This document shows positions 18,706 to 37,312 of a stretch of 53,682 nucleotides of DNA, piece by piece (position 1 is the stretch's first letter; every line of letters begins with the position of its first letter). The translations under genes were made by a program, and so were the position numbers. The notes beneath the pieces are model-generated. The model was not told the origin of the DNA, searched no databases, and saw nothing but the letters and a program-made list of their open reading frames with translations. The stretch comes from an uncultured Clostridium sp. (lineage in GTDB: Bacteria > Bacillota > Clostridia > TANB77 > CAG-508): NCBI GenBank assembly GCA_947568535.1, contig CANOPF010000002.1, positions 1 to 53,682 on the forward strand, read 5' to 3'.

Positions 18706-18735
18706 TTGATTTATTTTTAAAAAAGTCTATATAAT
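18706..18735 (+). promoter_or_regulatory. Candidate promoter of the A1-B1 operon
   Basis: TTGATT (18706-18711), 18-nt spacer, TATAAT (18730-18735), about 50 nt upstream of the ATG. A second candidate lies further upstream: TTGAAA (18545-18550), 17-nt spacer, TATAAT (18568-18573). Confidence 0.35.
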
Positions 18736-18787
18736 ATAGAAGAAGGATTAGGTTCAAAAAGAATACCTAAAAAATAAGGAGGATACA

Positions 18788-21700
18788 ATGAATTATAAAG
18801 TTTTAAAATCAATGATAGCCATTCTATTAATCATCACATTAGTGGGATTAAATGTCATGTTTTTAGGAAATAAGGTCGCAATTGCTATTTATGAAGAATT
18901 AGAAAAGCAACAAGGGACAACCAACGTCGAAAATATTATTTTCGATGCATATTTCCATGAAGAAGAAACAAAAAAGCATAGTAAGCAAGCAAAAATTAAT
19001 GAAGGTGATAACCTAATTCTTGATTTAACCGTAAAGAATGTGGGTGTATTAGAAGAGGGAAAAATCAAATTAGAAAATACAAACTTCACCATTGATACAG
19101 AAAAGGTAAAAAATGAAAATATAAAAACAATCAATGAAGAGACAAATGAAATTACCTTAAACCATTTAAGTAGTGGAAATATCAATATCGTTTTACCAAT
19201 CAAATTTAACAAAGAGGATGCCAATACCTTTCATTATTTTGACCAAGAGAATATGGTTACTTTAACAGGGAAATATAAACAAAGTGATACTAATACCAAA
19301 GACGTAAAAGGGCAAGTAGTAACTAGACTAATGTGGGAAGACGAAGCAGAAGTAGAATTAACACAAGAAGTAGAAAAGTATCTAAATTTAGGCGAAAAAG
19401 GAATCTTATTAGAACAAAAAGTATCCTTAGCCATAACCAATCATGTTTTACCAATGGAAAGACAAGCCATTCAAGTAAAAGTACCAGAATTAGATGGTAA
19501 TTATCCATCTAAAGTAGTTGTATTATACAATGGAAGGAAATTAGAAGAAACAGCCTACCAATGGAATGAGGAACATAGAACTATAGATATTCAGCAAGAA
19601 CAAAATAAAGATAATATTCAATGGGGAACAGGAATAGAAGAATATAAGATCATCTATACTTATCCAAAAGAAGCAGAAACGGAAACAAAAAATATTGAAT
19701 TAGATACAACAGCCATAACAAAATTATATACAAAAGAAGAGGTAACCCAAAGAGACTGTCAACCATTAACCATAAATTATAAAGGAAGCAATATAACGAT
19801 AGACAAAATAACAACACCATCTATCGACAAAGGATATATGTATGCTAATGTTAACCGACAAGTTAGTTATCAGGAAAAAATCAGTACAGAATTTTCTCAA
19901 GTAGATTTACTAGAAGATACCATTACTTTAACAGCAGACGAGAAATTTATCGATGCCAAAAAAACAAAACATAATGTACAAAATAGTATTGAAACGAAAA
20001 AAATACAAATTAATAAAGACAATCTCTTAGCTATCTTAGGAACAGAAGGAAATATACAAGTACAAAAAACAGATGGAACAATATTAACCAATATTAATGC
20101 AAATGTAGAAGCAGATGAGAATGGCAATATCATTTATGAGGTAAATTCAACTGATTCTATACAAATACAAATGACAAAGCCACAACAAGAAGGAACATTT
20201 GTGATTTATATAGAAAAAGCAATCAATGGACAAACAGGATATACAAAAGAAGCGGTTAAAACATTTGTTGCTTTAGAAGATACAACTATCGTAAAAGATA
20301 CAGAAGTAGTTGGTATAAAAACCATAGCATTACAAGAGCCTGTTACTGAAGCAAAACTAAGTATCAATAACGATAATTTATCAGCATTAGAAAATAATGA
20401 AAATATCCAACTAGTCATTACCTTAAAATCAGATGAAGCAAAATATAAGCTATGGAAAAATCCACATCTTTATTTAAAACTTCCACAAGGGATAGAAACC
20501 ATAAAGGTAAATTCTACGCAAATTCTTTATACAGATAGCCTAGTTATAGAGAGTGCTAATTTAGTAGAGGAAGATAAAGCAATTGATATACAAATGCGAG
20601 GAGAACAGACAGAATTTCAAAATAGTATGAATGAAGGAATTCAGATTATTATTAATGCAGATGTTTCCTTCGCTAAAACAACACCAAGTCAATTGGCGAA
20701 AATAGAATTAATTTATGAAAACAAGAATGACACAATAGGAGAACAAAAAACAGATATAGGCATAAATATCCATTCAAAAGTTGGTGCTTTATTATATAAC
20801 CGATTAGAAGGATACAATGAAGAAAACGAGAAATTAGAAACGATTTCTCAACAAACTATTGAGGGAGAACTTAATACAAGAGCAGAAGCACGAGTAGGTA
20901 AAGCACATATGGAAGTAGTTAATAACTATGAAGATGTTATGAAAGAGGTTAATACCATTATTCATTTACCAAATACACAAAATCTAGAAGAAAAACAAAG
21001 TACGATTAATTTAGCTTTAGCTGAAGCAATAGAAACACAAAAAGATAATGTAAATATTTACTATGCCACACAAGACATCGAAAAAGATAGTCAGGAGTGG
21101 ACAAGTGAAGTGCCTAAGCTAGAAGATATTCAAAAAGTAAAAATAGTCGTAAAAGAACTTCAACCAGGGGAAAGTATTCCTGTTAATTACACCATGACAA
21201 TACCAGAAAACCTTACAGAAAATCAAGAAGCTTATCAAAAAACAGATTTAACTTATGAATATCAAGGAAAAGAATTTGATACTTATGCCACAGTAAGATT
21301 AGCAACACCTGATGAAAAGGTAAGCCAAGTAGTAGAGCAAGAAAACAATGGTTTAGGCGTTCAGGTAAAAGTATCTACACATGATAAAGAAATAAATAAT
21401 GGTGATATGGTACGTGAAGGGCAAACCATAAGATACCATATTGATGTAACCAATCATACAGGAAAAGAATTAAAAAATTTTTCCTTAGAAGGATTACAGA
21501 CTGATGCAGAAGGTAATACCAATGTTACTTTCTTTCACGAGAAAGAAATAAAAGAATACCAACCAATTGTTGCTCAAGAGGTTGTCGTAAAACGTTATAT
21601 GGAAGATGACACCCTAAAAAGTATAACATTAGAAAAAGAGAAAATTTTAGAAGGAGAAGTTGTTAGTTTCCAATATGAATTTACAGTAAATAAAAAGCAA

Positions 21701-23590
21701 AAAGAAGATGAAGTAACAAAAGGAAGTATTGTATTAAAGGCAGAAAATTTAGAGGAAACCATACCATTAATGGAAAATACCATAGAAAAAGCAGATGTAA
21801 AAGTAGTGACTACTTATGGTTCTAACGAAGCAGTAGAATTTATTGCTGATACAGAAAATGCATTCTTATATACTCTTGAAAATTTAACCAATAAGACTTT
21901 AGAAAATATAGAATTGAAGGTTGTCCTACCAGAAGGAGCAAGTTTTAGCCCAAATTATCAAAAAGATACAGATATCTATGAGTTTGTGGGATATGAAAAT
22001 AGAGAAGTAAAGTTAAAAATTCATCAATTGGCTGTTAATCAAAAGTTAACTATACCATTATCCATCACAATTGGTGAAATAGATAGTCATAAATTAGAAC
22101 AAGAATATACATTTTTCTGTGAAGCTACTGTTAATCATCAAACATATTATTCAAATGAAATAGAAAAAATAGCTAAACAAAATAGAGCAAAGTTAGGTAT
22201 ATTACAAAAAGCAAATAAAACAGGTGAATATGCAAAAGAAGGAGAGGAAATTACCTATACGACAACCATTACCAATCAATCTCTTTTAGACACAGAATTA
22301 ACCATAGAAGACAATTTAGAAGAAATTTTAGAGATAAAAGAAGCATATCTAGAAAAAGAAGGACATAAACTAAAGGATTTTGAAAATAGAGAAGAATCAT
22401 TTGTTAATACACAATACCCACTAAAAGCAGGAGAAACCATTCAAGCCATCATTAAGACAAAAGTAGGAGAGAATGAAGATGATATTACTGAATTTAGTCA
22501 TTATTTAGATATTTATAATTCTGTACAAAGTGATGAATCCAATGCAATTACATATCAATTAGAGGGTACAGAAGGAATAACAAAAGGAGACAAAGGAAGT
22601 ATTCGTGGAAAGGTATGGCTAGATAGTCATAAAGATGGAATAAAAGAAGAAACAGGAATTAGCCAAGTAGAAGTGTTATTAATCCATGCAGAAAATGGTA
22701 AAGTAGTAGCCAATACACAGACTAATAGTGAGGGAGAATATCAATTCCAGAATTTAGACAATGCTCGTTATTTGGTAGGATTTAAATATGACACAACGAA
22801 ATATACAGTAACAAAATATAAAGTAGAAGGAAGTAATGAAGATAATAATTCCGATGTTATTAACAGGGAATTAACAATTGGTGGACAAACCATGACATTA
22901 GCAGTTACCGATGAAATAAACATAGCAGGGAATATAATGGATAATATAGATGCAGGATTTTATGAGAATAAAATTTTTGATTTGTCATTAAAAAAAGGAA
23001 TTAGGAAAATTATTACCCAAAGTTCAAGAGGAACAAAAGTACAAGAATATCATGATGTAGATTTAGCTAAAGTAGAATTACATGCCAAAGAAGTACAAGG
23101 TGCTAATGTTTTAATTGAATATGTAATCAAAGTAACCAACGAAGGCGAAATACCGGGATTTGTTAATAATGTAATAGACTATTTACCAAAAGAATTAACT
23201 TTTAGTTCTGAAATTAACAAAGATTGGTATGTAACAAATGGTAGATTATATAATCAAAGTTTAACCAATGAAGTAATACAACCAGGCGAAACAAAAGTAT
23301 TAAGTTTAACATTAACCAAAACAATGAGTGCAGACACAACAGGAACCATTCGTAATACAGCAGAAATTGGGGCAAGTTCAAATGATTTAGGACAAGCTGA
23401 TCGAGATTCAACACCAGGCAATAAACAAGAAAATGAAGATGATATTAGTTCAGTAGAGGTTATTGTTTCTGTTAGTACTGGTGCAATGACCATAATGGTT
23501 ACCAGCATAACCATTATAATAGGATTACTATTTATTAGTTTGATTATCTATCAATTACGAAAAACAACAGTAAAAGACGAGGAGGTGTAA
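18788..23590 (+). CDS. Giant surface protein A1 (1600 aa): N-terminal anchor/signal, long beta-rich region with DUF11-like repeats, SdrD-B/CnaB-like domain, DUF11-like anchor-proximal domain, xxxTG sorting-like signal
   Basis: AAGGAGG SD. SdrD-B-like GKVWLDSHKDGIKEETGISQVEVLLIHAENG...SEGEYQFQNLDNARYLVGF...NSDV (about 22594-22870). DUF11-like FDLSLKK...LIEYVIKVTNEGE...NTAEIGA...DRDSTPGNKQENEDD. C-terminal SVSTG (23468-23482) plus hydrophobic stretch plus RK tail. Confidence 0.85.
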   Translation: MNYKVLKSMIAILLIITLVGLNVMFLGNKVAIAIYEELEKQQGTTNVENIIFDAYFHEEETKKHSKQAKINEGDNLILDLTVKNVGVLEEGKIKLENTNFTIDTEKVKNENIKTINEETNEITLNHLSSGNINIVLPIKFNKEDANTFHYFDQENMVTLTGKYKQSDTNTKDVKGQVVTRLMWEDEAEVELTQEVEKYLNLGEKGILLEQKVSLAITNHVLPMERQAIQVKVPELDGNYPSKVVVLYNGRKLEETAYQWNEEHRTIDIQQEQNKDNIQWGTGIEEYKIIYTYPKEAETETKNIELDTTAITKLYTKEEVTQRDCQPLTINYKGSNITIDKITTPSIDKGYMYANVNRQVSYQEKISTEFSQVDLLEDTITLTADEKFIDAKKTKHNVQNSIETKKIQINKDNLLAILGTEGNIQVQKTDGTILTNINANVEADENGNIIYEVNSTDSIQIQMTKPQQEGTFVIYIEKAINGQTGYTKEAVKTFVALEDTTIVKDTEVVGIKTIALQEPVTEAKLSINNDNLSALENNENIQLVITLKSDEAKYKLWKNPHLYLKLPQGIETIKVNSTQILYTDSLVIESANLVEEDKAIDIQMRGEQTEFQNSMNEGIQIIINADVSFAKTTPSQLAKIELIYENKNDTIGEQKTDIGINIHSKVGALLYNRLEGYNEENEKLETISQQTIEGELNTRAEARVGKAHMEVVNNYEDVMKEVNTIIHLPNTQNLEEKQSTINLALAEAIETQKDNVNIYYATQDIEKDSQEWTSEVPKLEDIQKVKIVVKELQPGESIPVNYTMTIPENLTENQEAYQKTDLTYEYQGKEFDTYATVRLATPDEKVSQVVEQENNGLGVQVKVSTHDKEINNGDMVREGQTIRYHIDVTNHTGKELKNFSLEGLQTDAEGNTNVTFFHEKEIKEYQPIVAQEVVVKRYMEDDTLKSITLEKEKILEGEVVSFQYEFTVNKKQKEDEVTKGSIVLKAENLEETIPLMENTIEKADVKVVTTYGSNEAVEFIADTENAFLYTLENLTNKTLENIELKVVLPEGASFSPNYQKDTDIYEFVGYENREVKLKIHQLAVNQKLTIPLSITIGEIDSHKLEQEYTFFCEATVNHQTYYSNEIEKIAKQNRAKLGILQKANKTGEYAKEGEEITYTTTITNQSLLDTELTIEDNLEEILEIKEAYLEKEGHKLKDFENREESFVNTQYPLKAGETIQAIIKTKVGENEDDITEFSHYLDIYNSVQSDESNAITYQLEGTEGITKGDKGSIRGKVWLDSHKDGIKEETGISQVEVLLIHAENGKVVANTQTNSEGEYQFQNLDNARYLVGFKYDTTKYTVTKYKVEGSNEDNNSDVINRELTIGGQTMTLAVTDEINIAGNIMDNIDAGFYENKIFDLSLKKGIRKIITQSSRGTKVQEYHDVDLAKVELHAKEVQGANVLIEYVIKVTNEGEIPGFVNNVIDYLPKELTFSSEINKDWYVTNGRLYNQSLTNEVIQPGETKVLSLTLTKTMSADTTGTIRNTAEIGASSNDLGQADRDSTPGNKQENEDDISSVEVIVSVSTGAMTIMVTSITIIIGLLFISLIIYQLRKTTVKDEEV

Positions 23591-23591
23591 T

Positions 23592-26500
23592 ATGAAGAAG
23601 CTTAAACAAATAGGTTATATTTTATTCATGTTAATCATTATTGTTTTGCTCAATTATCATACAGCAGAAGCAGCAGGAGTAAAAGGGTTAACCACAGAGC
23701 AAATATTTAATTGGGTAAGTAAAGAAAATGATGCATTTATAAAATTAGATGCAAAAGCATTATTAAAAACGTATTACAGTGAAAATCAAATACAATCAAC
23801 TATCAATGAAGCATCACATGGACCATGGTCTAAATATTGGCGATGTATACGTAGTTTTGAAACTAATCCCGAAAAATCATGGGGATTTAACCTAAAAAAC
23901 GTTATTGATATTGATTCAGATGGAGAAGTAAAAGTAACGTATATGGATAAGAATACACCCAAAACAGAGGAAATTACAAAAGGAAGAGCACAAAGATTGT
24001 TTAACAATTGGGGGTATGCCATAAGTACAGATTTAGATGTTAAAGCAGATGCTAGTAATAACTTTGGTCAAAACTCGTATTATGGTCATGATTACTATTA
24101 TGCCTACCGAAGCACATTAAAGAGTAACCATGTTTACTATCCAGGAGATTACAAAGAAGATTTTGGTCATAGGTTAGAGGCTTTAACATCTCCAACAGCA
24201 AGAAAATATGTCAAAAAAGGTTACACTGTTCGTATTTTAGTGGCTACCATGGAAAAAAATAAAGGTCAAGCAAGACTTATTTTTGGAAGAGCTAAAAGTA
24301 TAGATATAGATGAACCCGATCTAGGAAATTTAAAGGTAATTAAAAAAGCCACTAATTCAGATGTAAAATTAAAAGATGTAGGATTTACTGTTCAACAAGA
24401 ATCAACAGGTAAATTTGTTAAAGAAGTAACAACAAAAGGAAAAAAAGAAATCAAGTATGTCAATACAGAAAAGGAAGCACAAGTATTTTTTACGAATAGC
24501 AAAGGTGAAAGACTAATTAGTAATCTACAGACAGGAACTTACTTAGTTAAAGAAGTAAGTAATCCAAATGAGTATTATGAAGTTGCTGTTGAAGAAATAA
24601 AAAAGAAAGTAAAGGCAAAAAATACCGTAGAAATTGAAATGGAAAATACACAGGTTTATGTTGATTTATCTGGATATGTATGGGAAGATAAGTTTGACGG
24701 AGCCAAAATGAAAGAAAGAAATGACTTATATCGAGATGATCCACTTTATGATGGAAAAGATGAATTAAAAAATGGTATTAAAGTAAGATTAATGAAGCGA
24801 AAAAGTCATACAGATAGTAAAACAGGACAGATTATCTTAGATACACCAGAAAAAGTAAGAGAAACAATAACAAGTGCATTGGGTAGGTATTCTGCAACAG
24901 GTAAAATACAAGATAATAGAAATAATGGAAATGGAGAATATTTCTTTGAGAAAGTACCAGTAGAAGATTTAGAAGATTATTATATAGAATTTGAATATGA
25001 TGGAATGACTTATACAAATGTTAATCCACATATAAAAGTAAATAATGGTTCAAAAGCAATAGAAGGTGACGCACGAAAAGTACTAAATCAATCATTTGGT
25101 GTAATCAATGGCTCTACAGCAGGAGAAATAAATCAAGGAACGTATAACATAAATGCTAGAACAGATTTAGCAGGATATACCATCAGTGAATATTTTAAAC
25201 CAGGACAAAAAGAAATTACTTACATAAATCTAGGATTGCGTGAAAGAGATCAACCAGATCTATCTTTACAAAAAGACTTGCAGACAGTCCAATTATCAAT
25301 TAATGGATATGGACATACCTATTATTATAATCAAAGATATACACCACCAGGAGAAAATCAAAATGGCTCTAACTTAGGTGTTCAATGGGCAGAAAAGGAA
25401 TTAGATGGAACAAAAACATATTTAAGACCTATATATCAAGCAGATGTTGACTATACAGATACAAACACAGACAACGAATTGAAAGTAAAGATAACCTATA
25501 AAATAAGAATCAATAATGCAACAACAGGAGAGAAATTACAAGCACGAGTACATGAGGTAGTAGACTATTATGATGCACGATACGAAGGGAAACCAAAAGC
25601 AGGAACAGGATTAAATGCCCAAGGAGAATTGACAGGAGAGATTTCTTGTTCAGAACCAGTAGCTTATGGAACAGAATACAAAAAAATTATCATTAATACT
25701 GGAGATGGAGAACTATTGGGAAGTGGAGAAACTGGAGGTAAGCCATCATATAAAGATATCTATGTACAATTTACATTAGGTAGACAGGCTGTGCTTAATA
25801 TTTTAAATAACCAAGAGAATTTAGACAATGTAGCAGAAATTAATGCATATTCTATTTATGATGCAGAAGGAAATCCATATGCCGCTGTTGATAAAGACTC
25901 TACTCCAGGTAACTGTAAGCCAGGACAACCAGATACTTATGAAGACGATACAAGTGAAAGTCCATCGTTAAAACTAGAAGTAGCAGAAGCAAGAGAGATA
26001 GCTGGTAAAGTATTCTTAGATGAGACAGCACCAACATTAACAGTAGGAGAAGAACGTAGAGGATCTGGAAAATACGAAGACAACGAGAAAGGAATTGCAG
26101 GAGTAAAGGTTGTATTGAAAGAAAACAAGGAAAACGGAAAAACATATGATGAAGCAGAAACAAATGAAGAAGGAGACTTTTTAATTAATGGATTTATACC
26201 AGGAGATTATACATTAACATATACCTGGGGAGATGACACTTACACAGTACAAGACTTTAAAGGAACGATTTATGACAAAGAAAGATATACCATAAATCAA
26301 ACAGATAAATATTGGTATAAGGGAACAAACAAAAATGATCCAAACGAAAGATATTCAGATGCAATAGATGATTATTCATTAAGACAGAAGATTGATCAAG
26401 AAAGTGCACAAGGAAATGAGACAAGCAAACAAATGCATTCAACAACACCAACAATAGGAATTGGTGTAGAATATGAAACCATTTATACAGCTTCAACAGG

Positions 26501-27458: not shown

Positions 27459-27478
27459 AATCATCATCTAAGAGGAAG

Positions 27479-27508
27479 AAAAAACGAAGGAATAACCTTC
27501 GTTTTTTT
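27479..27508 (+). terminator. Intrinsic terminator after B1
   Basis: AAAACGAAGG (27481-27490), loop AATAA, CCTTCGTTTT (27496-27505), followed by TTT. Confidence 0.7.
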
Positions 27509-27714
27509 GCGATATAGATAACACCATAGAAAATAATATGAATCACATGACCATGGTTTGTTCTTACGCAAATAAGAAAAATAGAGAATAAATCTAAAAT
27601 GTTACCATTATGTTATAAAAATGTAAACAAAACTTAAAAAATAGATAAGAAAGCTCAAAAGTCCATTTCCCTATAAACAAAAAAGAAAAGAAAAAATGGC
27701 CAAAGAAATAGATA

Positions 27715-27742
27715 TTGATTTCAGCAAAATGTTTACTATAAT
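27715..27742 (+). promoter_or_regulatory. Candidate promoter of the A2-B2 operon
   Basis: TTGATT (27715-27720), 16-nt spacer, TATAAT (27737-27742), about 45 nt upstream of the ATG. It has the same -35 hexamer as the proximal A1 candidate. Confidence 0.4.
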
Positions 27743-27784
27743 ATAAGGAAAAAGATATTTTATGATACAAGGGAGTATAGACTA

Positions 27785-30700
27785 ATGCAAGAAAAAATAG
27801 TAAAGATATTATTCATTATCATATGTATAGTTACCTTAGTGGGATTGGATATCCTATTTTTGGGAAATCAAGTCATTCTAGCTTTGTATGAAGGATTAGA
27901 AGAACAAGAAACCACGACTAATAGCAAAAATGTTTTGTTTGATGCCTATTTTGAGGAAGAGACAAAAGTACATCATAAAGAACTCAAAATTAGTCAAGGA
28001 AATAACGTCATTCTAGATATCACCATAACAGAAGGTGGCATTTTGGAAGAGGGAGTAATAAAAATTGAAAACGCCAATTTTAAAATAGATAAGGCAAACA
28101 TAAAAGATAAAAATATCAAATGTATTCATGAAGATAGCAATGAAATAGAATTAACTGTAATTCCCAATGGAAATGTAAAAATAGTTTTACCCATTCAATT
28201 TGAACGACAAGAAGCAAAAAATATAGACTATTTTGATCAAGAAAATCAGATAAAGATTAAGGGGAAATATAAAAGTAGTGATACGAAGAAAAAAAGTGTT
28301 CAAGGTCAGGTTCTAACTAGAACACAATGGAGTGAAGATACCGATATAGAGTTAACACAAAAAATAGAAAAATATTTAGATTTAGGAGAAAAGGGGATTG
28401 TATTACAACATACCGTCAATGTTAAACAAGATAATAACACTTTGCCACTTAATAAGCAGATTCTTACTGTTGAAGTGCCAGAGTTGGCCAAACAAATGCC
28501 AAAGGAAATAAGCGTATTGTATAATGGAAATTCATTAGAACAAGAGAATTATCAATTAGATAGGGATAATCATATATTGACCATTAAAAGAACATACAAT
28601 GATGATGAAATTCATTGGGAGGAAGAAGAAGGTGAATATAAAATAATTTATACCTATGAAAAAGAGGTAGGTAGTGAATCTAGAGTCATCAATCTTAAAG
28701 CCAATTTAGTTACACAATTATACACAAAAGAACCAATTATAAAAACAGATGAACAATCAACAAAGATAAACCGTAAAGGAAAGATCATAACATTAAGAAA
28801 ACAAGTAACACCTCATATAGGAAAAGGTTATATGTATGCTAATGTGAATAATACAGTAGAATATAAAGAGAAAATGCAATTAGAAATTTCAAAAGTAGGT
28901 GTAATAACAGAAAATACGATAATTAAGCAAACAGATCATTTTGTTGATGCTGAAGAAGTAAGAAAAACTACAAATCATAGTATTACCTATAAAAGTATTG
29001 AACTAGATAAAAACAATTTACTAACTATTTTAGGAGAAAAGGGAAATATTCAATTACAACAAGAAGATGGGACAATGATTACTCGTATCGATAAAGATAC
29101 GTCATCCAATGAAGAAGGGAAAATAGTCTATGATTTACCAAATTCAGTGCATGGATTAACAATCGTATATACCACACCAGTAAAGGAAGGAAACCTAAAT
29201 ATCCAACTAGTAAAAACAATATGTGGTGAAACAGGATATACGAAACAAGAATTACAGTCATTTGTTTTATTAGAGAATATTACTTATATGGAAAATGAAG
29301 TTGAACAAGAGAAATTAACAAAAAATATAGCATTAAAAGAAAGCATGGCAAAAGCAAAACTAGAATTCAACAAGACAAATTTATCAACATTAGAAAAAAA
29401 CGAAAATGTACAAATTTTAATTACTTTATTATGCAACAATGAGAATGATAATCTATGGAAAAATCCTTATGTGGAAGTTCAGTTACCACAAGAAATCCAG
29501 AAAATAGCAATAAAATCCGTAAAGACTCTTTATCATGGTGGAATCTATATCGAACAGGCAATGTATAAAAAAGATGAGAAAGTAATTAGTTTATCCATGA
29601 AAGGAGAGCAATTAGCATTTCAAACCGATATGAATGAAGGAATACAAATTATCATTCATGCAGACATTACATTAGATAAGAAAACACCAACAAAAGACGC
29701 AGAAGTAAAAATGTTATATGCCAATGAAGGAGAAGCACAGAAAGAAGAAAAGCAGAGTGTTCAGTTAACTTCGAAATATGGTGTATTTGTCTATAATCAG
29801 ATAAGCAATTATAATGAATCGAAAGAAAATTTAGAGAGTCTTAGTGAAGAGATAGTAGAAGGAAATTTAGATAGTCATGCAGAAGAAAGAATAGCCAAAC
29901 AAGAGGTTACCATTATTAATAATTATCAAGAGCCAATAGAAGAAGTTGTTGTCGTAGGAAGAATTGCTGAGAATAAGCAAAAACAAAATAGTATAGAAAC
30001 AGAGTTATTAGAAGAATTGGCAGTAAGTAGAGAAGATGTCAACATATTTTATTCAGAGGATCAAAATGCGACAGAAAATAGTGATTCATGGGGAGATTAC
30101 CGAGAAAGTGTAAAATCATATAAAATTGTATTAGCTAATCAACATATTAATCCATATGAAAAAATGACTTTATCTTATCCATTAAAAATACCTAATAATA
30201 TTGAGCCAAACAAAACGAATTATCATGTAGAAGAAGTAACTTATCAGTATAAGGGACAAGAAGAAAAAATCACCTCTTCTATGAAACTGTCTACGGCAAA
30301 GGAAGAAGAATTAGCCAAACAAACACAACAAGTAAAAAAAATAGATGGCATGGAAATTAACATGAAATCTAAAATAGGAAAAAATGAAATAACTAACGAT
30401 GAAGTAATTTATGGAGGGCAATCCATTGCTTGTACCATAGAAATAACTAATCACACAGGAAAAGACCTAAACCATTTAGCTATAAAAGCTGACTACGAAA
30501 ACGTAAATTTTTACGATGAAGTAAGGTATGAATCAATTGGTGGATTAGAAGAAACGTTTAATATATATATAGAAGAGGTAGAAAATCAAACACAAAAAGA
30601 ATGGGGTATTGAACAGTTAAAAGACGGAGAGGCTACGTTAATTGAATATGAATTTTCGGTAAAAGAAATACAAGAGGGGAATATTCTTGGAAAATTAATC

Positions 30701-32590
30701 TTAGGAGCGGACGAATGGGGAGAACACACCATAAAGGTAATGGAAAATCCAATAAAAAAAGCAGAAGTAAAATTGTATATCAGGAATAGTCAATCAGAAG
30801 ATATGATACTAGATACCAATACATATATTCCTGTTAAAGTATATGTTAAAAATTTATCTGACGTTGAACTAAATGATCTTATTGTCAATATTCACTTAGA
30901 TTCATATTCTTATTTTGATACAGATTGGCATTATGAAGGATGTGAAGTTTTAGACTATGACCAAACAAAAAATATCGTAAAAATGAAAATATATTCTATA
31001 AAAAGTCAAGAGACCATGATTATGGATGCTAATATTTGGTTCCATGAATTAGATGAACAGACAAAAAAAGTAGATATTCATATCTTAGCCGACTTAGAAA
31101 TGAATCATAATTCATATATATCGAATGCATTAATTAGAACAGTATACCAAGGAAAACCAAGTATAGAAATGAAACAAGAAGGAAGCGTTCATGGTGAATA
31201 CATTAAAGATGGAGATCAAGTAACCTTTACGACTACCATTACAAACACGGGCGTTAGAGGAGGAGTTTTTACCATTGAAGATGAGTTCCATGATACATTT
31301 GAAATAATTAATGCGTATTACGAAAAAGATGGAATAAAACAAGAATTAAGTGAAGAAGGAAATATCATTAACTTTGATGTTCAGTTAGATGAAGGAGAAC
31401 AAATAACATTAGTCATAGAAACAAGGATATATGCAGAATGTATGGAAGGAGATTCGGTTAGCAATAAAGTCTTGTTAAGTGGAATGTATTATGAAACAGA
31501 ATCGAATGAAATAACCTATAAACGATATCAACCTTCACAAGAAGAAAAGCCAGAAGCCCAAACATATAGTATTTCTGGAAGCGTGTGGTTAGATAAAAAT
31601 AAAAATGGAGCAAAAGATGCGGAAGAAGAAGGATTGAAAGGCATCAAAGTGATTTTGTTAGATGCTACTACAGGAGAGATAGTAAAAGATAAAAACGGAA
31701 GTCAAAAAACGATATCTATACAACATGATGGCAATTATGTATTTGAAAATTTAGAAAGAAATCGATATATGGTAGTATTTGAATATGACGACCAAAAATA
31801 TACTGTGACAGAATATCAAAAAACAGGGGTAAACGAGCAAATCAATTCGGATGTTATTGCTAAAAATGTAACAATAGAGGGAGAAAAGAAGGTAAGAGCA
31901 ATAACTGATATGTTGATATTGGAAAATCAACATATAACCAATATTAATGCGGGATTTTGTGAAAATAAGATTTTTGATTTATCATTACAAAAAGCAGTAA
32001 AAAAAGTCATTGTACAAAATACAAGAGGAACAAGTATATATGAATACAACGATGTAGATATAGCAAAGGTAGAATTAAGTGCAAAAGAAATAGAAGGCTC
32101 AAATATATTAATCGAGTATAGTATAAAAGTTAAAAATGAAGGCGAAATAGCTGGATATGTAACTGATGTACTTGATTATATACCAAAAGATTTAACCTTT
32201 CGTTCAGAAATCAATAAAGATTGGTATATTTCTACAGACGGTATTCTTCATAATCAAAGTTTGACCAATCATATTTTGGCACCTGGACAAAGCAAAGAGT
32301 TAACGTTAATGTTAACCAAGACGATAACCACTCATAATATAGGATTAATACATAATACAGCGGAAATTGGAAAAAGTAGTAATCCTTTAGGACAAGAAGA
32401 CATAGATTCAACACCAGGAAACAATCAAAAAGATGAAGACGATCTTAGTTCAGCACAAGTAATTATTTCTATATCTACAGGTAGAATAGGTTGTTATATT
32501 AGTGTGATGCTAATTAGTGTAATCCTATTTCTGATTGGTATTTATGTTATAAAAGGAAAAGTATTTGTAAGAAAGGAGAAAAATACATGA
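27785..32590 (+). CDS. Giant surface protein A2 (1601 aa), colinear paralog of A1
   Basis: It aligns with A1 from the N-terminal anchor (LVGLDILFLGNQV vs LVGLNVMFLGNKV). The match continues through the SdrD-B-like domain (GSVWLDKNKNGAKDAEEEGLKGIKVILLD...) to DIDSTPGNNQKDEDD and SISTG (32468-32482) plus TM segment plus basic tail. Confidence 0.85.
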   Translation: MQEKIVKILFIIICIVTLVGLDILFLGNQVILALYEGLEEQETTTNSKNVLFDAYFEEETKVHHKELKISQGNNVILDITITEGGILEEGVIKIENANFKIDKANIKDKNIKCIHEDSNEIELTVIPNGNVKIVLPIQFERQEAKNIDYFDQENQIKIKGKYKSSDTKKKSVQGQVLTRTQWSEDTDIELTQKIEKYLDLGEKGIVLQHTVNVKQDNNTLPLNKQILTVEVPELAKQMPKEISVLYNGNSLEQENYQLDRDNHILTIKRTYNDDEIHWEEEEGEYKIIYTYEKEVGSESRVINLKANLVTQLYTKEPIIKTDEQSTKINRKGKIITLRKQVTPHIGKGYMYANVNNTVEYKEKMQLEISKVGVITENTIIKQTDHFVDAEEVRKTTNHSITYKSIELDKNNLLTILGEKGNIQLQQEDGTMITRIDKDTSSNEEGKIVYDLPNSVHGLTIVYTTPVKEGNLNIQLVKTICGETGYTKQELQSFVLLENITYMENEVEQEKLTKNIALKESMAKAKLEFNKTNLSTLEKNENVQILITLLCNNENDNLWKNPYVEVQLPQEIQKIAIKSVKTLYHGGIYIEQAMYKKDEKVISLSMKGEQLAFQTDMNEGIQIIIHADITLDKKTPTKDAEVKMLYANEGEAQKEEKQSVQLTSKYGVFVYNQISNYNESKENLESLSEEIVEGNLDSHAEERIAKQEVTIINNYQEPIEEVVVVGRIAENKQKQNSIETELLEELAVSREDVNIFYSEDQNATENSDSWGDYRESVKSYKIVLANQHINPYEKMTLSYPLKIPNNIEPNKTNYHVEEVTYQYKGQEEKITSSMKLSTAKEEELAKQTQQVKKIDGMEINMKSKIGKNEITNDEVIYGGQSIACTIEITNHTGKDLNHLAIKADYENVNFYDEVRYESIGGLEETFNIYIEEVENQTQKEWGIEQLKDGEATLIEYEFSVKEIQEGNILGKLILGADEWGEHTIKVMENPIKKAEVKLYIRNSQSEDMILDTNTYIPVKVYVKNLSDVELNDLIVNIHLDSYSYFDTDWHYEGCEVLDYDQTKNIVKMKIYSIKSQETMIMDANIWFHELDEQTKKVDIHILADLEMNHNSYISNALIRTVYQGKPSIEMKQEGSVHGEYIKDGDQVTFTTTITNTGVRGGVFTIEDEFHDTFEIINAYYEKDGIKQELSEEGNIINFDVQLDEGEQITLVIETRIYAECMEGDSVSNKVLLSGMYYETESNEITYKRYQPSQEEKPEAQTYSISGSVWLDKNKNGAKDAEEEGLKGIKVILLDATTGEIVKDKNGSQKTISIQHDGNYVFENLERNRYMVVFEYDDQKYTVTEYQKTGVNEQINSDVIAKNVTIEGEKKVRAITDMLILENQHITNINAGFCENKIFDLSLQKAVKKVIVQNTRGTSIYEYNDVDIAKVELSAKEIEGSNILIEYSIKVKNEGEIAGYVTDVLDYIPKDLTFRSEINKDWYISTDGILHNQSLTNHILAPGQSKELTLMLTKTITTHNIGLIHNTAEIGKSSNPLGQEDIDSTPGNNQKDEDDLSSAQVIISISTGRIGCYISVMLISVILFLIGIYVIKGKVFVRKEKNT

Positions 32591-35500
32591 AAAGATATGT
32601 AAAGATTATTATTATCCTATGTTTATTTTCATGTATGTTAATTATTCCAAAGCAGTCAATTCTTGCTTTTGAATCAGCGGGAAAATTAGATGACTTTATA
32701 GCATTAACACAAAAGAATGCATTTTCAACAACTGATTTGTCAACCTTTAAAAAAACATATTTAGGTAAAACATTAAGTATGGGAGCGACAGATCCATCAC
32801 ATAAACAAGGTGCTTCTTGTGCTGGTCATGGTAATAGTATCCTTCAAGAAGCACCAATAGCAACCCGATTTATACAATGTATATTAGATGTCGAGACAAC
32901 ATTTAATGAAAAAACCAGAAAAGTAGAAGTGAATCGTACCTCTTTTTTTACCAATAATAAAGGGGAGATACAGCCTTCTTTAAAAGAAGAAGATATGAAT
33001 AGTGCACAAAGAGAATTGTTAAATAAAATAGCTTATGTAGCCTTTAAAGGAAAAGAAGAAAAGGGAAGCAAGGAAACTGATATTGATACACCATATAAGA
33101 AGACTTTACATGATTTATTACATAAAAGTTTGAATAACGAGCAAAGAAACTTAGGCATTAGTAAGTACCTAAAAACAGGAAAAATAGATAATGAAACAAA
33201 AGCAGATACTACCATTATTACTCAGGCAAATGCGTATAATAACAAGATAAAAAATGGCGATAAGTTTTATTCGTTAAAAACAGCTCCAAAGTTAAGCAAT
33301 AAAACAGTAAAATTATCAGGTGATGCAGAAGCAAAAGAGTATACATATATAGGGCCATTCAAAATTGTAAGTGGAGGAGGAATTAAACCTAGTGGTATAC
33401 AATGTATAGGAGCAAAGGGAGGAAAAAGAACAGTAAAAGGAATTGTGACAACAGCAAATGGAACCAATCCTAAAAAGGTTTCCACTATTCAAGACAAAAA
33501 GCAATTTTGGGTTGTTGTAGTAGGAAAATTAACCAAAATGCCTACCATAACATTAGAGAAGAAACTATCCTATATAGCTAATGCAAGAGTTGTCATATTA
33601 ATTAATACATCTCCAACTCATAGTGTACAACATAATGCTGTTTTTTCAGGAGCAACAGAAAAGACGGCAACATTAACATTAGAATTAACAGGAGCAGGTG
33701 TAGAAACAGGGAATGGAAACATAAACATTGAAAAGAAATCAAGTACAACAGGGGAACCAATGAAAGATGTTCAATTTACTATACAAAATAGTGAAGGTGA
33801 ATATTATACCAAGGCAAAGATTTTTTCTTCTACTTTTACCGATGATTGTATATGGATAACTGGTGCAAATGGAAGAATAGAGATTGCCGATATAGAATCA
33901 GGTATTTATACAGTAACCGAAATAGGTGTATTAAATAATGGTTATGGACAAGATAATTATGGGTATTTATCTAGTGGAGAGGAACAAACTGAAGAAGTAG
34001 AAATAGGAGGAACAGTAACATTTATTTTTGAAAATGTGAAACATACAGGCAAATTAGTCATTAACAAAATAGATAAAGGTACAGGTCAACCAATGAGTAG
34101 AATAGGATTTACTTTACAAATGGTATCACCAGGTGACAAGTATCAGAAATATATCCACATCAATGATAAGGGTAATATTACCTATGAATCAACTCCACAA
34201 ACGTTATTAACAACAGTAGATGGAAAATTAGTCATTGATGGTATATGGGAAGGAGCCTATAAATTAACAGAAGTAGAAAATCCTTATTTTGGATATGAGG
34301 TACTCCCTAAGATAATTGAAGAGCAGTTAATTGTGCAAGGGCATAGTCAAGAAGTTACAATTATTGTTGAAAATGAAAGAAAGTATATTAAACTATCAGG
34401 ATATGTATGGGAAGATAGAAATAATCTTATTGGAAAGAAATGGGAAAAAGATAATCTCTATACACCAAACAGTAATGACAAAAAACTACAAAATGTAGAG
34501 GTTATACTAAAGAAATCAGATGGAACAATATTGGATACACAAATAACCAATGAAAATGGCACATATGTATTTGGAGATTTTGCCTCAAACCAAAAACCAA
34601 TTGAAATCGCTGATTTACATGGAGCTTATATAGAATTTACTTATAATGGCATGTGTTATCAATCTGTAGAAGTAAATGCCAATCAAGATAATGGAAGTAA
34701 AGCAACAGATGAACCATTAAGAAAGGAATTTAATGAGGCGTATAGCACGATAACTAAAGGAAAAGCACAAAATGGAAATTACAATTTAGTCTATGATTAT
34801 CAGGATCACAAAGCTATCTTAACTTATGGAGAAAAACAAAAGTATGTATATGGATATGAAGGACAAAAATACCCTATTTCGGGTATTAGCAATCAATATA
34901 CATTAAAAGCTAATACATTAGATGCGTCCCCAGATAAATGGTTAGGACAATCAACATATACCATAGAAGATGTTTACAAAAATGGCATACAAGAGATTTC
35001 GAACATTAATTTAGGATTAACAGAAAGAGAAATGCCAGATATTGCTTTGGTACAAGATATTCAAGATGTCAAGATTGGGTTAAATGGATATATGCATACC
35101 TATCAATATGCACAAAGATTTTCCAAGTTAAATCAAGAAATAGCCAAATTTGTAGAAGAAAATAAAGATACGGATAAAATCTTTAATATCGGTGTGAATT
35201 TTGGAGAGAAATATGGTCCAGAACAATATACAGCTACCATTTATTCCTCAGACATTGTATACAATAACCAAGAGGGAAATCAGGGGAAATTAGGTGTATG
35301 GATTAATTATGAAATGAGATTAATGAATCAAACAGCTTCGGTAAAAACCGTAGTCAATGAGTTATATAATTATTATGATTCTGATTATGAAGTTGACTCA
35401 GTAACAGATAAAAATGGCAAACACCTTACCTATACTATAGATGAAGGGTATGTACAAAACAATCGTAAAAGAATGTTAATCCATCCAGAAGAGGGAATTT

Positions 35501-37236
35501 CCATAGAAGAACAAGGAGAACAAAAAGTTAAGATAACTTATCGAGTAAAAAACGAAGCAGTGAGCAGGATGTTAAATCACGATCAAATATTAAACTCAAT
35601 TACGGAAGTAGTATCTTATTCATCTTATGATAAAGATAATCATAGATATGCGGGTATTGATGTAGACTCTGAACCCAATAATGCTATAATAGGAAAGACA
35701 GAAACATATGAAGATGATATTGATCAAGCACCATCAATTATTTTACAGAGTAGAAATACAAGAAAGATCGAAGGTACAGTTTGGGAAGAAAATGCAATAG
35801 AAGAATTATTGAAAAAAACTGGATATGACAAGGAAAGACTAGGAAATGGTCAATATGATGAAGGTCAAGAAGGAATAATAGAAAATGTGCAGGTAGAATT
35901 ATTAAAAATAGAAGAAAACAAAATGTCATGGGCTTCGTTGTATCAAGCAACAGGACAAGTAGTAACCCAAGCAAAGACGAAGACAGATGGGAAAGGATAT
36001 TATTGCTTTGATGGTATCATACCAGGAAGGTATGTAATCAGGTTTACGTATGGAAATAATAGTATAGTTTGTGAACCAAATGGAAATAAAAAGACTATTC
36101 AAGAAAAAGATGGCGTGGAATATTATAAATCAACATTATATCGAACAAAAAACATAGGAGGAGAAAAACAATCATTCTATCAGGAAGAAGACCCATATTG
36201 GTTTAAAGATAGTCAGGAAAGTGCAAATAGGTTATCCGATGCTAGAGATGATAGGCGTTTAGTACAACAAAGAATAAATGATAGTCAGGAAATAAACTAT
36301 AACACAGTAATACAAGAAAGCAAAATACAAGAGATTCAAGCCAGTACAGATCCTTTTGTAATGGAAATGGATTTTAATCAAAATGACACAGAACGTATTA
36401 GTCAGTTTGGACAGCCACTTAAGTTTGTATTTGAACATCTAGATTTTGGTATTATTCGTAGGCCAAAACAAAACTTGAGTTTAAAGAAAGAAATTGCTCA
36501 TGTTAAAGTAACATTAGCAAATCAACAAACCATTATTGACGGAGATCCAAGAAAAGGAGGATTAAAACATCTAAAATATTCGCCAGATGGAAATGTACAG
36601 ATTGAATTAGATAGTGAAATTATGCAAGGTGCAACATTAACATTAACTTATGATATTATAGTAGATAATACTCAGTGTGAAATCGATTATCATGACATCA
36701 ATTATTACGATTTCGGAACGCAAAATAGGAATAAGTGGAAAGTAGCAACCATTAAGAATTTATTTGAATATCCAAGTAATGAATTTAACTTTGAACAAAA
36801 GTATAATCAAAATTGGGCTATTGTAGATGTAAAACAGTTAGACAACAACAAGTTAAAACCAGGTCTTAAGAAAAAACTGGAAATTTACCAAACGATTTTG
36901 CAAACACAACAATTTGCTATGATGAAACCAGGCGAGAAAAAAATAGAGAAAGTGATATTAAGCAAGTTAATTGCTAATACAGAGGAAGACTTATCTTTTG
37001 ATAATGACATAGAAGTAAATACTTATCTACATAGTAAAATGGATAAAACAATACCAGGAAATTATGATCCAGCCGATAGCCATACAAAAGAAAAAGATAA
37101 TGATCATAAAAATCTTGTTCTTACTGTACCAACAGGAGAAAATCGAGAATATTTACCTTACATTATCTTAGCCATAGTATCATGTATTATTTTGGTAGTA
37201 GGCATAATAAGCATAAAACGAAAAGTATTACAATAA
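32587..37236 (+). CDS. Giant surface protein B2 (1549 aa), paralog of B1 with a longer N-terminal region and two CnaB-type domains
   Basis: ATGA overlap with A2. Signal peptide ...SILA/FE. E-box-like GIYTVTEIG and GAYKLTEVENPYFGYEV. SGYVWEDRNN... INLGLTEREMPDIALVQD... VDSEPNN...YEDDIDQAP. C-terminal TVPTG (37123-37137) plus TM segment plus KRKVLQ. Confidence 0.85.
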   Translation: MKRYVKIIIILCLFSCMLIIPKQSILAFESAGKLDDFIALTQKNAFSTTDLSTFKKTYLGKTLSMGATDPSHKQGASCAGHGNSILQEAPIATRFIQCILDVETTFNEKTRKVEVNRTSFFTNNKGEIQPSLKEEDMNSAQRELLNKIAYVAFKGKEEKGSKETDIDTPYKKTLHDLLHKSLNNEQRNLGISKYLKTGKIDNETKADTTIITQANAYNNKIKNGDKFYSLKTAPKLSNKTVKLSGDAEAKEYTYIGPFKIVSGGGIKPSGIQCIGAKGGKRTVKGIVTTANGTNPKKVSTIQDKKQFWVVVVGKLTKMPTITLEKKLSYIANARVVILINTSPTHSVQHNAVFSGATEKTATLTLELTGAGVETGNGNINIEKKSSTTGEPMKDVQFTIQNSEGEYYTKAKIFSSTFTDDCIWITGANGRIEIADIESGIYTVTEIGVLNNGYGQDNYGYLSSGEEQTEEVEIGGTVTFIFENVKHTGKLVINKIDKGTGQPMSRIGFTLQMVSPGDKYQKYIHINDKGNITYESTPQTLLTTVDGKLVIDGIWEGAYKLTEVENPYFGYEVLPKIIEEQLIVQGHSQEVTIIVENERKYIKLSGYVWEDRNNLIGKKWEKDNLYTPNSNDKKLQNVEVILKKSDGTILDTQITNENGTYVFGDFASNQKPIEIADLHGAYIEFTYNGMCYQSVEVNANQDNGSKATDEPLRKEFNEAYSTITKGKAQNGNYNLVYDYQDHKAILTYGEKQKYVYGYEGQKYPISGISNQYTLKANTLDASPDKWLGQSTYTIEDVYKNGIQEISNINLGLTEREMPDIALVQDIQDVKIGLNGYMHTYQYAQRFSKLNQEIAKFVEENKDTDKIFNIGVNFGEKYGPEQYTATIYSSDIVYNNQEGNQGKLGVWINYEMRLMNQTASVKTVVNELYNYYDSDYEVDSVTDKNGKHLTYTIDEGYVQNNRKRMLIHPEEGISIEEQGEQKVKITYRVKNEAVSRMLNHDQILNSITEVVSYSSYDKDNHRYAGIDVDSEPNNAIIGKTETYEDDIDQAPSIILQSRNTRKIEGTVWEENAIEELLKKTGYDKERLGNGQYDEGQEGIIENVQVELLKIEENKMSWASLYQATGQVVTQAKTKTDGKGYYCFDGIIPGRYVIRFTYGNNSIVCEPNGNKKTIQEKDGVEYYKSTLYRTKNIGGEKQSFYQEEDPYWFKDSQESANRLSDARDDRRLVQQRINDSQEINYNTVIQESKIQEIQASTDPFVMEMDFNQNDTERISQFGQPLKFVFEHLDFGIIRRPKQNLSLKKEIAHVKVTLANQQTIIDGDPRKGGLKHLKYSPDGNVQIELDSEIMQGATLTLTYDIIVDNTQCEIDYHDINYYDFGTQNRNKWKVATIKNLFEYPSNEFNFEQKYNQNWAIVDVKQLDNNKLKPGLKKKLEIYQTILQTQQFAMMKPGEKKIEKVILSKLIANTEEDLSFDNDIEVNTYLHSKMDKTIPGNYDPADSHTKEKDNDHKNLVLTVPTGENREYLPYIILAIVSCIILVVGIISIKRKVLQ

Positions 37237-37250
37237 TTTAGGATAAAAAA

Positions 37251-37312
37251 TACCATATAAGGGAAAATAGTCAGGTAATTGATTATTGGTAACTTATATG
37301 GTATGATTGCTT
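37251..37312 (+). terminator. Long-loop hairpin plus T-run after B2 (probable terminator)
   Basis: Perfect 11-bp arms TACCATATAAG (37251-37261) and CTTATATGGTA (37293-37303), 31-nt loop, then GATTGCTTTT. Confidence 0.4.

Follow-up and report, generated by a model that had tools for sequence, protein, structure and literature searches.

A duplicated gene pair at a fixed core-genome site of uncultured gut Clostridia probably encodes two co-produced fibrillar surface proteins

The DNA analysed here, a stretch of 53,682 nucleotides (nt) from an uncultured Clostridium sp. of the TANB77 lineage (contig CANOPF010000002.1), contains a block of four very large genes, which we call A1, B1, A2 and B2. 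The whole stretch is referred to as the window, and all coordinates refer to it unless a related locus is named. The reading that we favour, to which we would give a probability of roughly 0.6, is that the block forms an operon, specific to the clade, from which two fibrillar surface proteins are made together: B, a sortase-anchored adhesin resembling pilins and TIE proteins, and A, a companion rod of fixed length. The block would thus supply a clade-specific, fast-evolving pair of fibrillar surface adhesins, displayed on the vegetative cell surface.

The block is filled by four open reading frames (ORFs) on the plus strand (Table 1). A first-pass annotation, made from the sequence alone, had described them as two coupled A–B units, and its sizes and coordinates proved to be exact. 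A single base (23591) separates A1 from B1, and A2 and B2 overlap by 4 nt (ATGA), with the B2 start lying over the A2 stop codon. The A proteins are 40% identical to each other and colinear from end to end (1615 alignment columns). For the B proteins, the alignment, at 28% identity, is limited to residues 260–1288 of B1 and 503–1549 of B2, that is, to the C-terminal ∼1030 amino acids (aa). The N-terminal heads of B1 and B2 do not align to each other at all and B2 has an extra SpaA-type domain, so that the earlier statement that B1 and B2 share the same domain order stands for the C-terminal part but not for the remainder. All that is common to A and B is a short SdrD_B-like stretch and a ‘DSTPGN...EDD’ motif.

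At the DNA level the units share no repeat longer than 288 nt, at 77% identity, and the duplication must therefore be an old one, not an artefact, as had been proposed from the strong divergence of the paralogs. An assembly artefact or a recent duplication is ruled out by this limit on shared DNA together with the 28–40% identity of the paralogs. The comparison with other species also points to an old duplication, A1 being 40% identical to A2 and 59% identical to its orthologue in the nearest species. In a neighbour-joining tree of the A family, paralogs from the same locus are mostly not sisters; its deep, star-like branching does not allow the duplications to be dated. The base composition of the block (GC fraction 0.29–0.33, versus 0.25–0.32 in the remaining window) is like that of the rest of the DNA, as first noted. 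A foreign island is ruled out by this composition, and by the synteny of the region in 59 of 79 related loci.

These related loci were obtained by scanning species-representative genomes with an alignment of 12 A sequences, which gave 212 relatives; the 79 loci retained from these were thus all found through A. Every one comes from a metagenome-assembled genome of uncultured Clostridia, from human, mouse, rabbit, chicken, goat or sheep gut. A word-indexed search found 110 homologs of A1, nearly all of 1550–1700 aa, 25–63% identical over their full length and unnamed. An exhaustive search of 1.84 billion representatives with the N-terminal 1100 residues of A returned 999 clusters with E ≤ 1e-3, of which 459 reached E ≤ 1e-30; the full-length members have ∼1600–1700 aa and align from residue ∼41. 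Homologs of B1 number more than 581, and the few with a name appear at NCBI as ‘SdrD B-like domain-containing protein’ and ‘SpaA isopeptide-forming pilin-related protein’; the suspicion that databases might list homologs simply as SdrD-B or DUF11 proteins was therefore well founded.

The gene order in these loci is near-invariant: M23 peptidase, mecA, radC, mreBCD, pbp2, minC, two small minus-strand ORFs, A, B, in some cases a second A and B, spoIIE and a WG-repeat protein, with at least one of these flanks present in 59 of the 79. B lies directly 3′ of A (within 500 nt) for 73 of the 77 full-length A genes, and this holds across species that are only ∼27–30% identical in A. The gaps from A to B are mostly −29 to +24 nt, and those from B to the next A mostly 63–600 nt. 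Where both flanks are present, the locus has one pair in 16 cases and two pairs in 2; two pairs are also seen in several truncated loci. The median identity to the window is 29% for A and 26% for B, compared with 82% for mreB, 56% for pbp2, 58% for minC and 50% for spoIIE. By this measure A and B evolve about twice as fast as their neighbours, as is typical of exposed surface proteins. In the closest species (locus L001), pbp2, minC and spoIIE are 81–88% identical to those of the window, A 59% and B 45%.

Three of the loci depart from the layout of the window in ways worth recording. L001 has a single unit, and an IS110-like fragment (15399–15833 of that locus) lies between B and spoIIE, where the window has A2–B2. 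L025 and L055 represent a variant architecture: their A tails read AVQAGG or SISLGG, not xTG, and B does not follow A directly, a ∼440-aa ORF standing after A and a ∼1440-aa minus-strand ORF upstream.

The linkage is carried further by natural gene fusions. Several assemblies, from human gut and elsewhere, have an A–B pair followed by a single A::B gene encoding 2817–3424 aa, whose N-terminal part matches A to the very end of the A tail and whose remainder matches B. A fused second unit of this kind is present in four or more species. In each of the four in-frame cases (L059, L080, L082 and L083; Table 1), the junction has the same order of elements: the ‘IISxSTG’ motif and hydrophobic helix of A, a short basic loop, the B signal peptide and a small-residue site of the signal peptidase I type (VDA, IFA, SLA or VFA). 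Such a junction would form a topologically consistent membrane hairpin, passing from out to in and then from in to out, and signal peptidase could cut the fusion back into A and B. The order of elements suggests that the A anchor and the B signal peptide are normally inserted into the membrane next to each other. Since in-frame fusions occur in four loci from different assemblies, A and B are likely to work together. The view of the first-pass annotation that A and B belong together thus gains from the neighbourhood survey, from the coupling-distance gaps and from the fusions. In one further locus, L081, the region corresponding to the fusion is called as two genes, of 307 and 2612 aa.

Protein A consists of a signal peptide, ∼12 uncharacterised β-sandwich domains, an SdrD_B domain, a DUF11/CLIPPER domain and a sorting tail, ∼14 domains in total. 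Ala33 of A1, the last residue of the predicted signal peptide, is invariant among the 12 closest homologs, and cleavage would be expected there. Of the Pfam families named in the first-pass annotation as worth scanning for, SdrD_B and DUF11 were found in A. The DUF11 domain of A2 scores 40.2 bits (cut-off 24.6), which places a CLIPPER domain above the Pfam gathering score in both A proteins; matches to DUF7927 and DUF7507 are weak. DUF11 has been renamed CLIPPER, and DUF11, DUF7927, DUF7507, SdrD_B and SpaA-type domains are intramolecular-isopeptide families of fibrillar adhesin stalks (PMC12617251). K1403, D1464 and N1523 hardly vary in the alignment of A proteins, and their order fits the Lys-Asp-Asn isopeptide triad described in that work, so that a bond may be predicted here.

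No Pfam family covers residues 1–1100 of A. For residues 41–1240 of A1, an AlphaFold2 model built with 59 homologs is entirely β, with a mean predicted local distance difference test score (pLDDT) of 89, and may be read as about a dozen tandem sandwich domains. Foldseek returned for this model only generic immunoglobulin (Ig)- or macroglobulin (MG)-type arrays, with template-modelling scores near 0.1, and because the matches are of this generic kind A appears to be a rod without a recognisable functional head. The A family is colinear, with column occupancy above 0.94 except in two 50-residue blocks; conservation is highest towards the C-terminus and moderate in the N-terminal part, and there is no hypervariable tip. 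The length of ∼1600 aa is kept across hundreds of clusters at 50% identity. A sequence search of solved structures matched A1 to the UafA B domain only, and gave nothing for B1 or B2. Assignment to the staphylococcal Sdr-family MSCRAMMs was rejected, as the score with the NCBIfam SdrC model, 31 bits, is far below the cut-off of 1700 and only the B-repeat-like domain matches; no Ser-Asp repeat region was seen on reading all four sequences.

Protein B has a different plan. In B1, a signal peptide and a rare head are followed by SpaA (CnaB-type) and SdrD_B-like domains and an LPXTG-type anchor, and the Pfam scans found in B SpaA prealbumin-like domains and an SdrD_B/CarboxypepD_reg-like domain. 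The AlphaFold2 model of B1 residues 29–1228 has a pLDDT of 71 and is poor in the head. Its best Foldseek match is the Bacillus anthracis TIE protein 6FWV, followed by BcpA, SpaD, PilA, EbpB, SpaA, GBS52 and CppA; E values for BcpA, SpaD, PilA, EbpB and SpaA are 1e-9 to 1e-6, a CnaA/CnaB-type pilin fold that was found for B only. The surface fibre or adhesin first proposed for the block is in keeping with these results, since each of the four proteins combines a signal sequence, an all-β multi-domain body and a C-terminal anchor.

The heads of B are its variable part. Most B homologs cover 81% of B1, aligning from residue ∼245 on and leaving out the head, which is aligned by one protein only (P0112) among the matches listed; the B1 head appears to be a different and rarer domain than the common B head. 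In the common head family the Cys of [YF]C[VI][EQ]H never varies, and the sequence PVQNAIW comes ∼60 residues later. About half of 91 B proteins from the related loci carry [YFL]C[VIAMLT][EQDN] at residues ∼45–105, and a subset of these also QxA[IV]W. The B2 head, a distant relative of the common one, keeps the invariant Cys in the alignment, with K replacing Q at the QxAIW position. The pair [YF]C[VI][EQ] and QxA[IV]W resembles the two signature motifs of bacterial thioester domains. Such domains occur in pilus tip adhesins and in TIE proteins. The length of B ranges from 1284 to 3182 aa among the relatives, and B heads probably swap freely between species and paralogs.

A basic and then hydrophobic N-terminal signal sequence is present in all four proteins (in B1, AEA precedes the cleavage site predicted on reading the sequence), and the C-terminus of all four is made up of a short motif, a run of ∼20 hydrophobic residues and a basic tail. 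The related loci provided 86 A-type and 91 B-type tails for comparison. In A, the tripartite pattern with [SGT][IV]xTG is found in 77 of 86 (SIKTG, SVKTG, GIKTG, SVSTG and so on), and the T-G pair is at least 90% conserved in 33 homologs and invariant in the 12 closest. In B, the tripartite pattern is found in 79 of 91, mostly as [TL]P[PSN][TF]G (TPPTG 28, LPPFG 11, TPSTG 7, TPNTG 5, LPPTG 3), with a few lacking the proline. The two tails run parallel, PGN...EDD.S.A..[VI][IV] being followed by T-P-x-T-G in B or S-I/V-x-T-G in A, and because the tails look homologous the A motif looks like a proline-less derivative of that of B.

Pfam scans of all window ORFs found no sortase, and no secretion ATPase, pilus-assembly or glycosyltransferase gene. 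This agrees with the first inspection, which had also seen no YPKN-type pilin motif in the cluster; a lone YPKE at A1 residue 292 is absent from A2 and lies in no conserved column. In the related loci, 29 unassigned flanking ORFs turned out in a Pfam scan to be housekeeping genes. Elsewhere in the window, at 47197–49149 on the plus strand, lies a gene for a 650-aa surface protein with BspA-type leucine-rich repeats, a Big_3 domain, a canonical LPKTG, a transmembrane segment and a basic tail, which scores 16.0 bits against LPXTG_anchor (cut-off 15.9). This suggests that the organism uses sortase anchoring, and because a window protein outside the block carries such a canonical signal a sortase elsewhere in the genome is very probable. 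The block had been described as lacking dedicated assembly genes, which is correct locally, but the sorting signals of all four proteins and the LPKTG of their neighbour had been overlooked; assembly of A and B is probably ordinary sortase anchoring by an enzyme encoded elsewhere.

We propose that A and B are exported by their N-terminal Sec signal peptides, and that the C-terminal tripartite signal (motif, hydrophobic helix, basic tail) would then hold both at the membrane. A sortase encoded elsewhere would cleave the (T/L)PxTG of B and link B to peptidoglycan. B would be the ligand-binding partner, with a stalk of CnaB/CnaA-type isopeptide-family domains and an exchangeable N-terminal head, whilst A would be a conserved companion of fixed length, its ∼14 domains giving a rod of ∼50 nm at ∼4 nm each (an assumed and not a computed value). 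Because the A tail, though homologous to that of B, consistently lacks the proline, A with its S[I/V]xTG may be processed less efficiently, may be processed by another enzyme or may be left tethered to the membrane. The A anchor helix and the B signal peptide are made back to back, and are fused in some species, and for this reason the two proteins probably enter the envelope together, side by side, and work jointly as a two-protein fibre or brush, in which A might be the stalk and B the tip. The two units would then be two versions with different heads, at 28–40% identity, differing in ligand specificity or antigenic type.

Some of our results weigh against this proposal. The linkage and the fusions of A and B could reflect co-regulation only. 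The A tails, whose motif has no proline, gave no match to TIGR01167 LPXTG_anchor. (S/P)PxTG is cut by SrtB of C. difficile, and the motif of A resembles instead the proline-less NVQTG of CbpA, which SrtB did not cleave in vitro (PMC4155245); for this reason the A motif is without proven precedent as a sortase substrate. A search for the TLxTC motif gave no ORF, either in the window or up to 10 kb from each of the 79 loci. As to the heads, Pfam TED matched the B head only at E = 0.41, there was no match among PDB profiles, and the head profile, used to look for further homologs, brought up nothing but B-family fragments, without a TED annotation among them. The heads in the window do not themselves support a thioester, B1 having the other head, poorly modelled, and B2 lacking the Gln. 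A thioester domain in the common B heads is suggested by likeness of motif and is unproven.

A and B might be independent adhesins, each anchored to wall or membrane and co-transcribed without being partners, their pairing reflecting operon inheritance in a syntenic, reduced genome. The region from mreB to spoIIE is syntenic throughout the clade, so that part of the conservation of order comes from the genome as a whole; A and B have only generic domains in common, and extra B-like genes without an adjacent A exist (in L032, for example). We nevertheless think independence unlikely. B stands at coupling distance after 73 of 77 A genes despite A and B being the fastest-evolving genes of the region, in-frame fusions with a transmembrane–signal-peptide junction are found at four loci in different assemblies, A and B duplicate together as a unit, and the two families keep tail motifs that are distinct but homologous. 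A further reading, to which we give a low probability, is an obligate A–B fibre with split sorting signals, in which the (T/L)PxTG of B would be cut by sortase, and the S(I/V)xTG of A would escape cleavage or would join B to A. Uncleaved A would be a membrane-rooted mast of ∼50 nm, or alternatively the A tail would serve a second transpeptidation, and the back-to-back arrangement of A anchor helix and B signal peptide would deliver both proteins via one translocon.

A minimal heteromeric pilus assembled by sortase, with the threonine of B's (T/L)PxTG joined to a lysine of A, A as a tethered base and one stalk carrying one tip, would account for the pilin/TIE-like fold of B, for sorting motifs that are distinct in each family as in tip and shaft pilins, for B heads like those of tip adhesins, with thioester-like motifs in relatives, and for an N-terminal half of A that is moderately conserved and not hypervariable, as would fit a docking role. 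The two features that would define such a pilus are missing, however: neither the window nor any of the 79 loci has a pilin-specific (class C) sortase beside the genes, and there is no conserved YPKN-type pilin-motif lysine. Moreover, proteins of 1300–1600 aa, each with its own complete anchor, would make a long fibre without polymerisation, and we regard the pilus as improbable. Least probable of all is that A and B form a structural envelope layer, or a spore appendage or exosporium, and are not adhesins. This would explain a core position by the cell-shape and division genes and spoIIE. The pair does sit at a single fixed core-genome site wherever a related locus was retrieved (all of them found through A), the length of A is strictly conserved as in a structural ruler, and spoIIE and two conserved small ORFs are among the neighbours. 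Set against this, the promoter candidates are of the sigma-70 type, and no sporulation-sigma pattern was seen on reading the upstream sequences, though no search aimed at one was made; Pfam and NCBIfam scans of the block proteins found no SLH, CWB2, coat or exosporium domains; ligand binding, or pressure from immunity or phages, accords better with the rapid divergence and the swapped heads; and the sorting signals point to the vegetative cell wall.

The favoured reading, of a sortase-anchored B with a companion rod A, can be compared with several known systems. The closest for B are the TIE adhesins, such as the Bacillus anthracis TIE protein (PDB 6FWV), the best structural match of the B1 model, and Cpe0147 of Clostridium perfringens. 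They share with B the plan of signal peptide, N-terminal head, CnaA/CnaB-type stalk and LPXTG-like anchor, and the thioester-like [YF]C[VI][EQ] and QxA[IV]W occur in many B relatives. They differ in that B heads have no significant match to Pfam TED or to a solved TED (B1 having another head and B2 no Gln), and in that B is almost always preceded by A. TIE proteins are not known to require a partner gene. Sortase pili of the SpaA/BcpA/FctA type resemble the A–B system in the SpaA (PF17802) domains and fold of B and in the distinct sorting motifs of A and B. However, A and B have no adjacent pilin sortase and no conserved pilin-motif lysine, they are 3–4 times larger than pilus subunits, and A is not pilin-like beyond its generic β-sandwich domains. 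The SrtB substrates of C. difficile are likewise surface proteins of a low-GC clostridial organism that carry xPxTG in place of LPxTG; TPxTG of B is close to (S/P)PxTG and S[IV]xTG of A to the NVQTG of CbpA, but these substrates are single genes of ordinary size (PMC4155245).

Like the CLIPPER adhesins, A ends in a DUF11/CLIPPER domain and has a long tandem β-sandwich stalk and a sorting signal; it differs in that its first ∼1100 residues belong to no Pfam family, in its fixed number of domains, in having no recognisable head and in being paired with B (PMC12617251). The pilus described for TANB77 is of the Tad type, with a TadA/CpaF ATPase, a TadB/C platform and pilin-like proteins mostly of 143–237 aa, one of them, protein 938, having 621 aa (PMC11680825). 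It is likewise a conserved surface-appendage locus of an uncultured, reduced-genome, low-GC lineage of gut Clostridia, but it is a different system, and none of its genes is in the window. That A–B might be the published ‘conserved pilin of TANB77’ is ruled out, since that pilin belongs to a Tad-type pilus with small pilins.

Table 1. Positions of genes, domains, sorting signals and candidate regulatory elements of the A–B block, of two flanking genes, and of the A::B fusion genes in related loci
Feature	Position	Strand	Remarks
minC	17072–17683		Pfam
Distal sigma-70-like promoter candidate, unit 1	18545–18573	+	TTGAAA-17-TATAAT, TG just upstream of −10
Proximal sigma-70-like promoter candidate, A1–B1	18706–18735	+	TTGATT-18-TATAAT
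A1	18788–23590	+	ORF; 1600 aa, predicted fibrillar surface protein of fixed length
A1 signal peptide, residues 1–33	18788–18886	+	Hydrophobic core, AIA before predicted cleavage site; read from sequence
A1 SdrD_B (CnaB-like) domain, residues 1274–1370	22607–22897	+	Pfam PF17210, 57.3 bits (cut-off 29.7)
A1 DUF11/CLIPPER (CnaA-like) domain, residues 1438–1535	23099–23392	+	Pfam PF01345, 35.9 bits (cut-off 24.6)
A1 sorting tail	23468–23587	+	SVSTG, ∼25 hydrophobic residues, RK
B1	23592–27458	+	ORF, Pfam; 1288 aa, predicted pilin/TIE-like adhesin
B1 head, residues ∼28–243	23673–24320	+	Low AlphaFold2 confidence; without thioester-type Cys/Gln motif pair
B1 SpaA prealbumin-like (CnaB-type) domain, residues 245–353	24324–24650	+	Pfam PF17802, 39.4 bits (cut-off 23.1)
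B1 sorting signal	27345–27455	+	TANTG, hydrophobic segment, KKK; TIGR01167 LPXTG_anchor, 20.7 bits (cut-off 15.9)
Intrinsic terminator between units	27479–27508	.	Perfect 12-bp hairpin, then T-run
Sigma-70-like promoter candidate, A2–B2	27715–27742	+	TTGATT-16-TATAAT
A2	27785–32590	+	ORF; 1601 aa, colinear paralog of A1
A2 sorting tail	32468–32587	+	SISTG, hydrophobic segment, KGK
B2	32587–37236	+	ORF; 1549 aa, paralog of B1 with other head, two SpaA domains
B2 head, residues ∼27–375	32665–33711	+	Distant relative of head in most B homologs
B2 sorting signal	37123–37233	+	TVPTG, hydrophobic segment, KRK; below TIGR01167 threshold, fits family motif
Hairpin after B2, possible terminator	37250–37304	+	−24 kcal/mol, z = −4.7, weak U-tract
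spoIIE	37519–39918		Pfam
A::B fusion, L080	14267–23236 of L080		In-frame, as second unit
A::B fusion, L082	14817–24437 of L082		In-frame, as second unit
A::B fusion, L083	14201–23143 of L083		In-frame, as second unit
A::B fusion, L059	1048–9501 of L059		In-frame, as second unit

Each unit had been credited with its own promoter candidate and terminator. Sigma-70-like sites do lie upstream of both A genes (Table 1). The distal candidate of unit 1 had the top score of the promoter scan, with 11 of 12 matches, and its elements, CATTGAAAA and TGTATAAT at a spacing of 17, are kept upstream as CATTGAAAA...TGTATAAT in L001, L038 and L067. The ATTGATTT block of the proximal A1 candidate recurs in L001 and upstream of A2. 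Because these candidates look like vegetative promoters, partly conserved in relatives, they argue, weakly, against a sporulation-specific role. For the terminators, the one between the units has both the hairpin and the T-run and is upheld, whilst the structure after B2 is a stable hairpin but has a weak U-tract.

The distal candidate lies ∼215 nt upstream of the A1 start and is followed by a putative leader (18574–18705) with blocks that are kept in relatives, for example AAATGTAAT.AAAAA.TTAATATTT and TTTCCGTAA; these may act as a site for protein binding or as a regulatory RNA not yet described. No Rfam family, such as a cyclic di-GMP riboswitch, matched anywhere in the window at gathering score, and the A1 leader region (18400–18850) had no Rfam match at E ≤ 1. 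An invertible promoter or phase-variation switch is unsupported, the inverted repeats being short and AT-rich. One of them, a 17-nt repeat at 18435–18451 and 18700–18716 (94% complementary, arms 248 nt apart), brackets the distal promoter candidate, its arms overlapping the ribosome-binding region of a minus-strand small ORF and the −35 element of the proximal A1 promoter; it may be due to chance in AT-rich DNA.

The flanks of the block, mreB-mreC-mreD-pbp2-minC upstream and spoIIE downstream, were identified by Pfam, and this part of the earlier description of the site is confirmed. It had also been suggested that the block sits where minDE would be expected. Neither minD nor minE follows minC in the window or in any related locus (a statement about this locus only), and because the gene order is near-invariant across the clade, the site between minC and spoIIE goes back to the ancestor of the clade, and minDE were not displaced by an insertion; the clade appears to have minC without minDE here. 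Between minC and A1, two overlapping small ORFs of 127 and 143 aa (17680–18445, minus strand) are transcribed away from A1. They match no Pfam family and are kept at this position in many related loci, with ∼47–48% median identity; one has a hydrophobic C-terminus and an N-terminus rich in Tyr, Arg, Pro and His. They may or may not be linked to the A–B unit.

Further from the block, the window contains remnants of mobile elements, namely a fragment of an IS110-family transposase (7–624) and a serine recombinase that is split into two adjacent ORFs, with the resolvase domain at 3936–4562 and the recombinase and zinc-ribbon domains at 4570–5505. A radC-like ORF on the plus strand (11676–12137; UPF0758_N and HhH) has only 153 aa, versus mostly ∼226–277 aa in the related loci, and may be truncated in the window.

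The domains, the anchors and the overall plan are those of Gram-positive fibrillar adhesins and are known already, and the block represents no new class of machinery. To say, as the first-pass annotation did, that there is no characterised equivalent is too strong, as the fold of B is like that of TIE proteins and pilins and the domains belong to known isopeptide stalk families. What is new is the near-obligate pairing of A and B at a fixed core-genome site across the loci retrieved; the strictly kept length and architecture of A, with its first 1100 residues outside Pfam; and the combination of two related but distinct sorting motifs, fusions that preserve the transmembrane–signal-peptide hairpin, and freely exchanged heads.

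The A–B block takes up one third of the window, and would be ∼1% of the genome if this is near 1.75 Mb, the size of a contig with a B homolog. Because the pair is large, present in every locus retrieved and among the fastest-evolving genes of a conserved region, it is a strong candidate for the main structure with which these bacteria contact host mucus, food particles or other microbes, and also a strong candidate as a major antigen or as a receptor for phages. As a lineage marker, or to enrich or cultivate these bacteria with the help of antibodies, one could use the conserved parts of A, and the variable B heads could define specificity at strain level. The paired but distinct motifs and the natural fusions offer a simple system in which to study how sortase signals diverge and whether two giant adhesins are assembled together. 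Should the sorting signals of A and B prove to have split fates, this would be a way, not described before, to build a heteromeric Gram-positive fibre that needs no dedicated pilin sortase, and A–B would be the main structure that a whole uncultured gut lineage turns towards its host.

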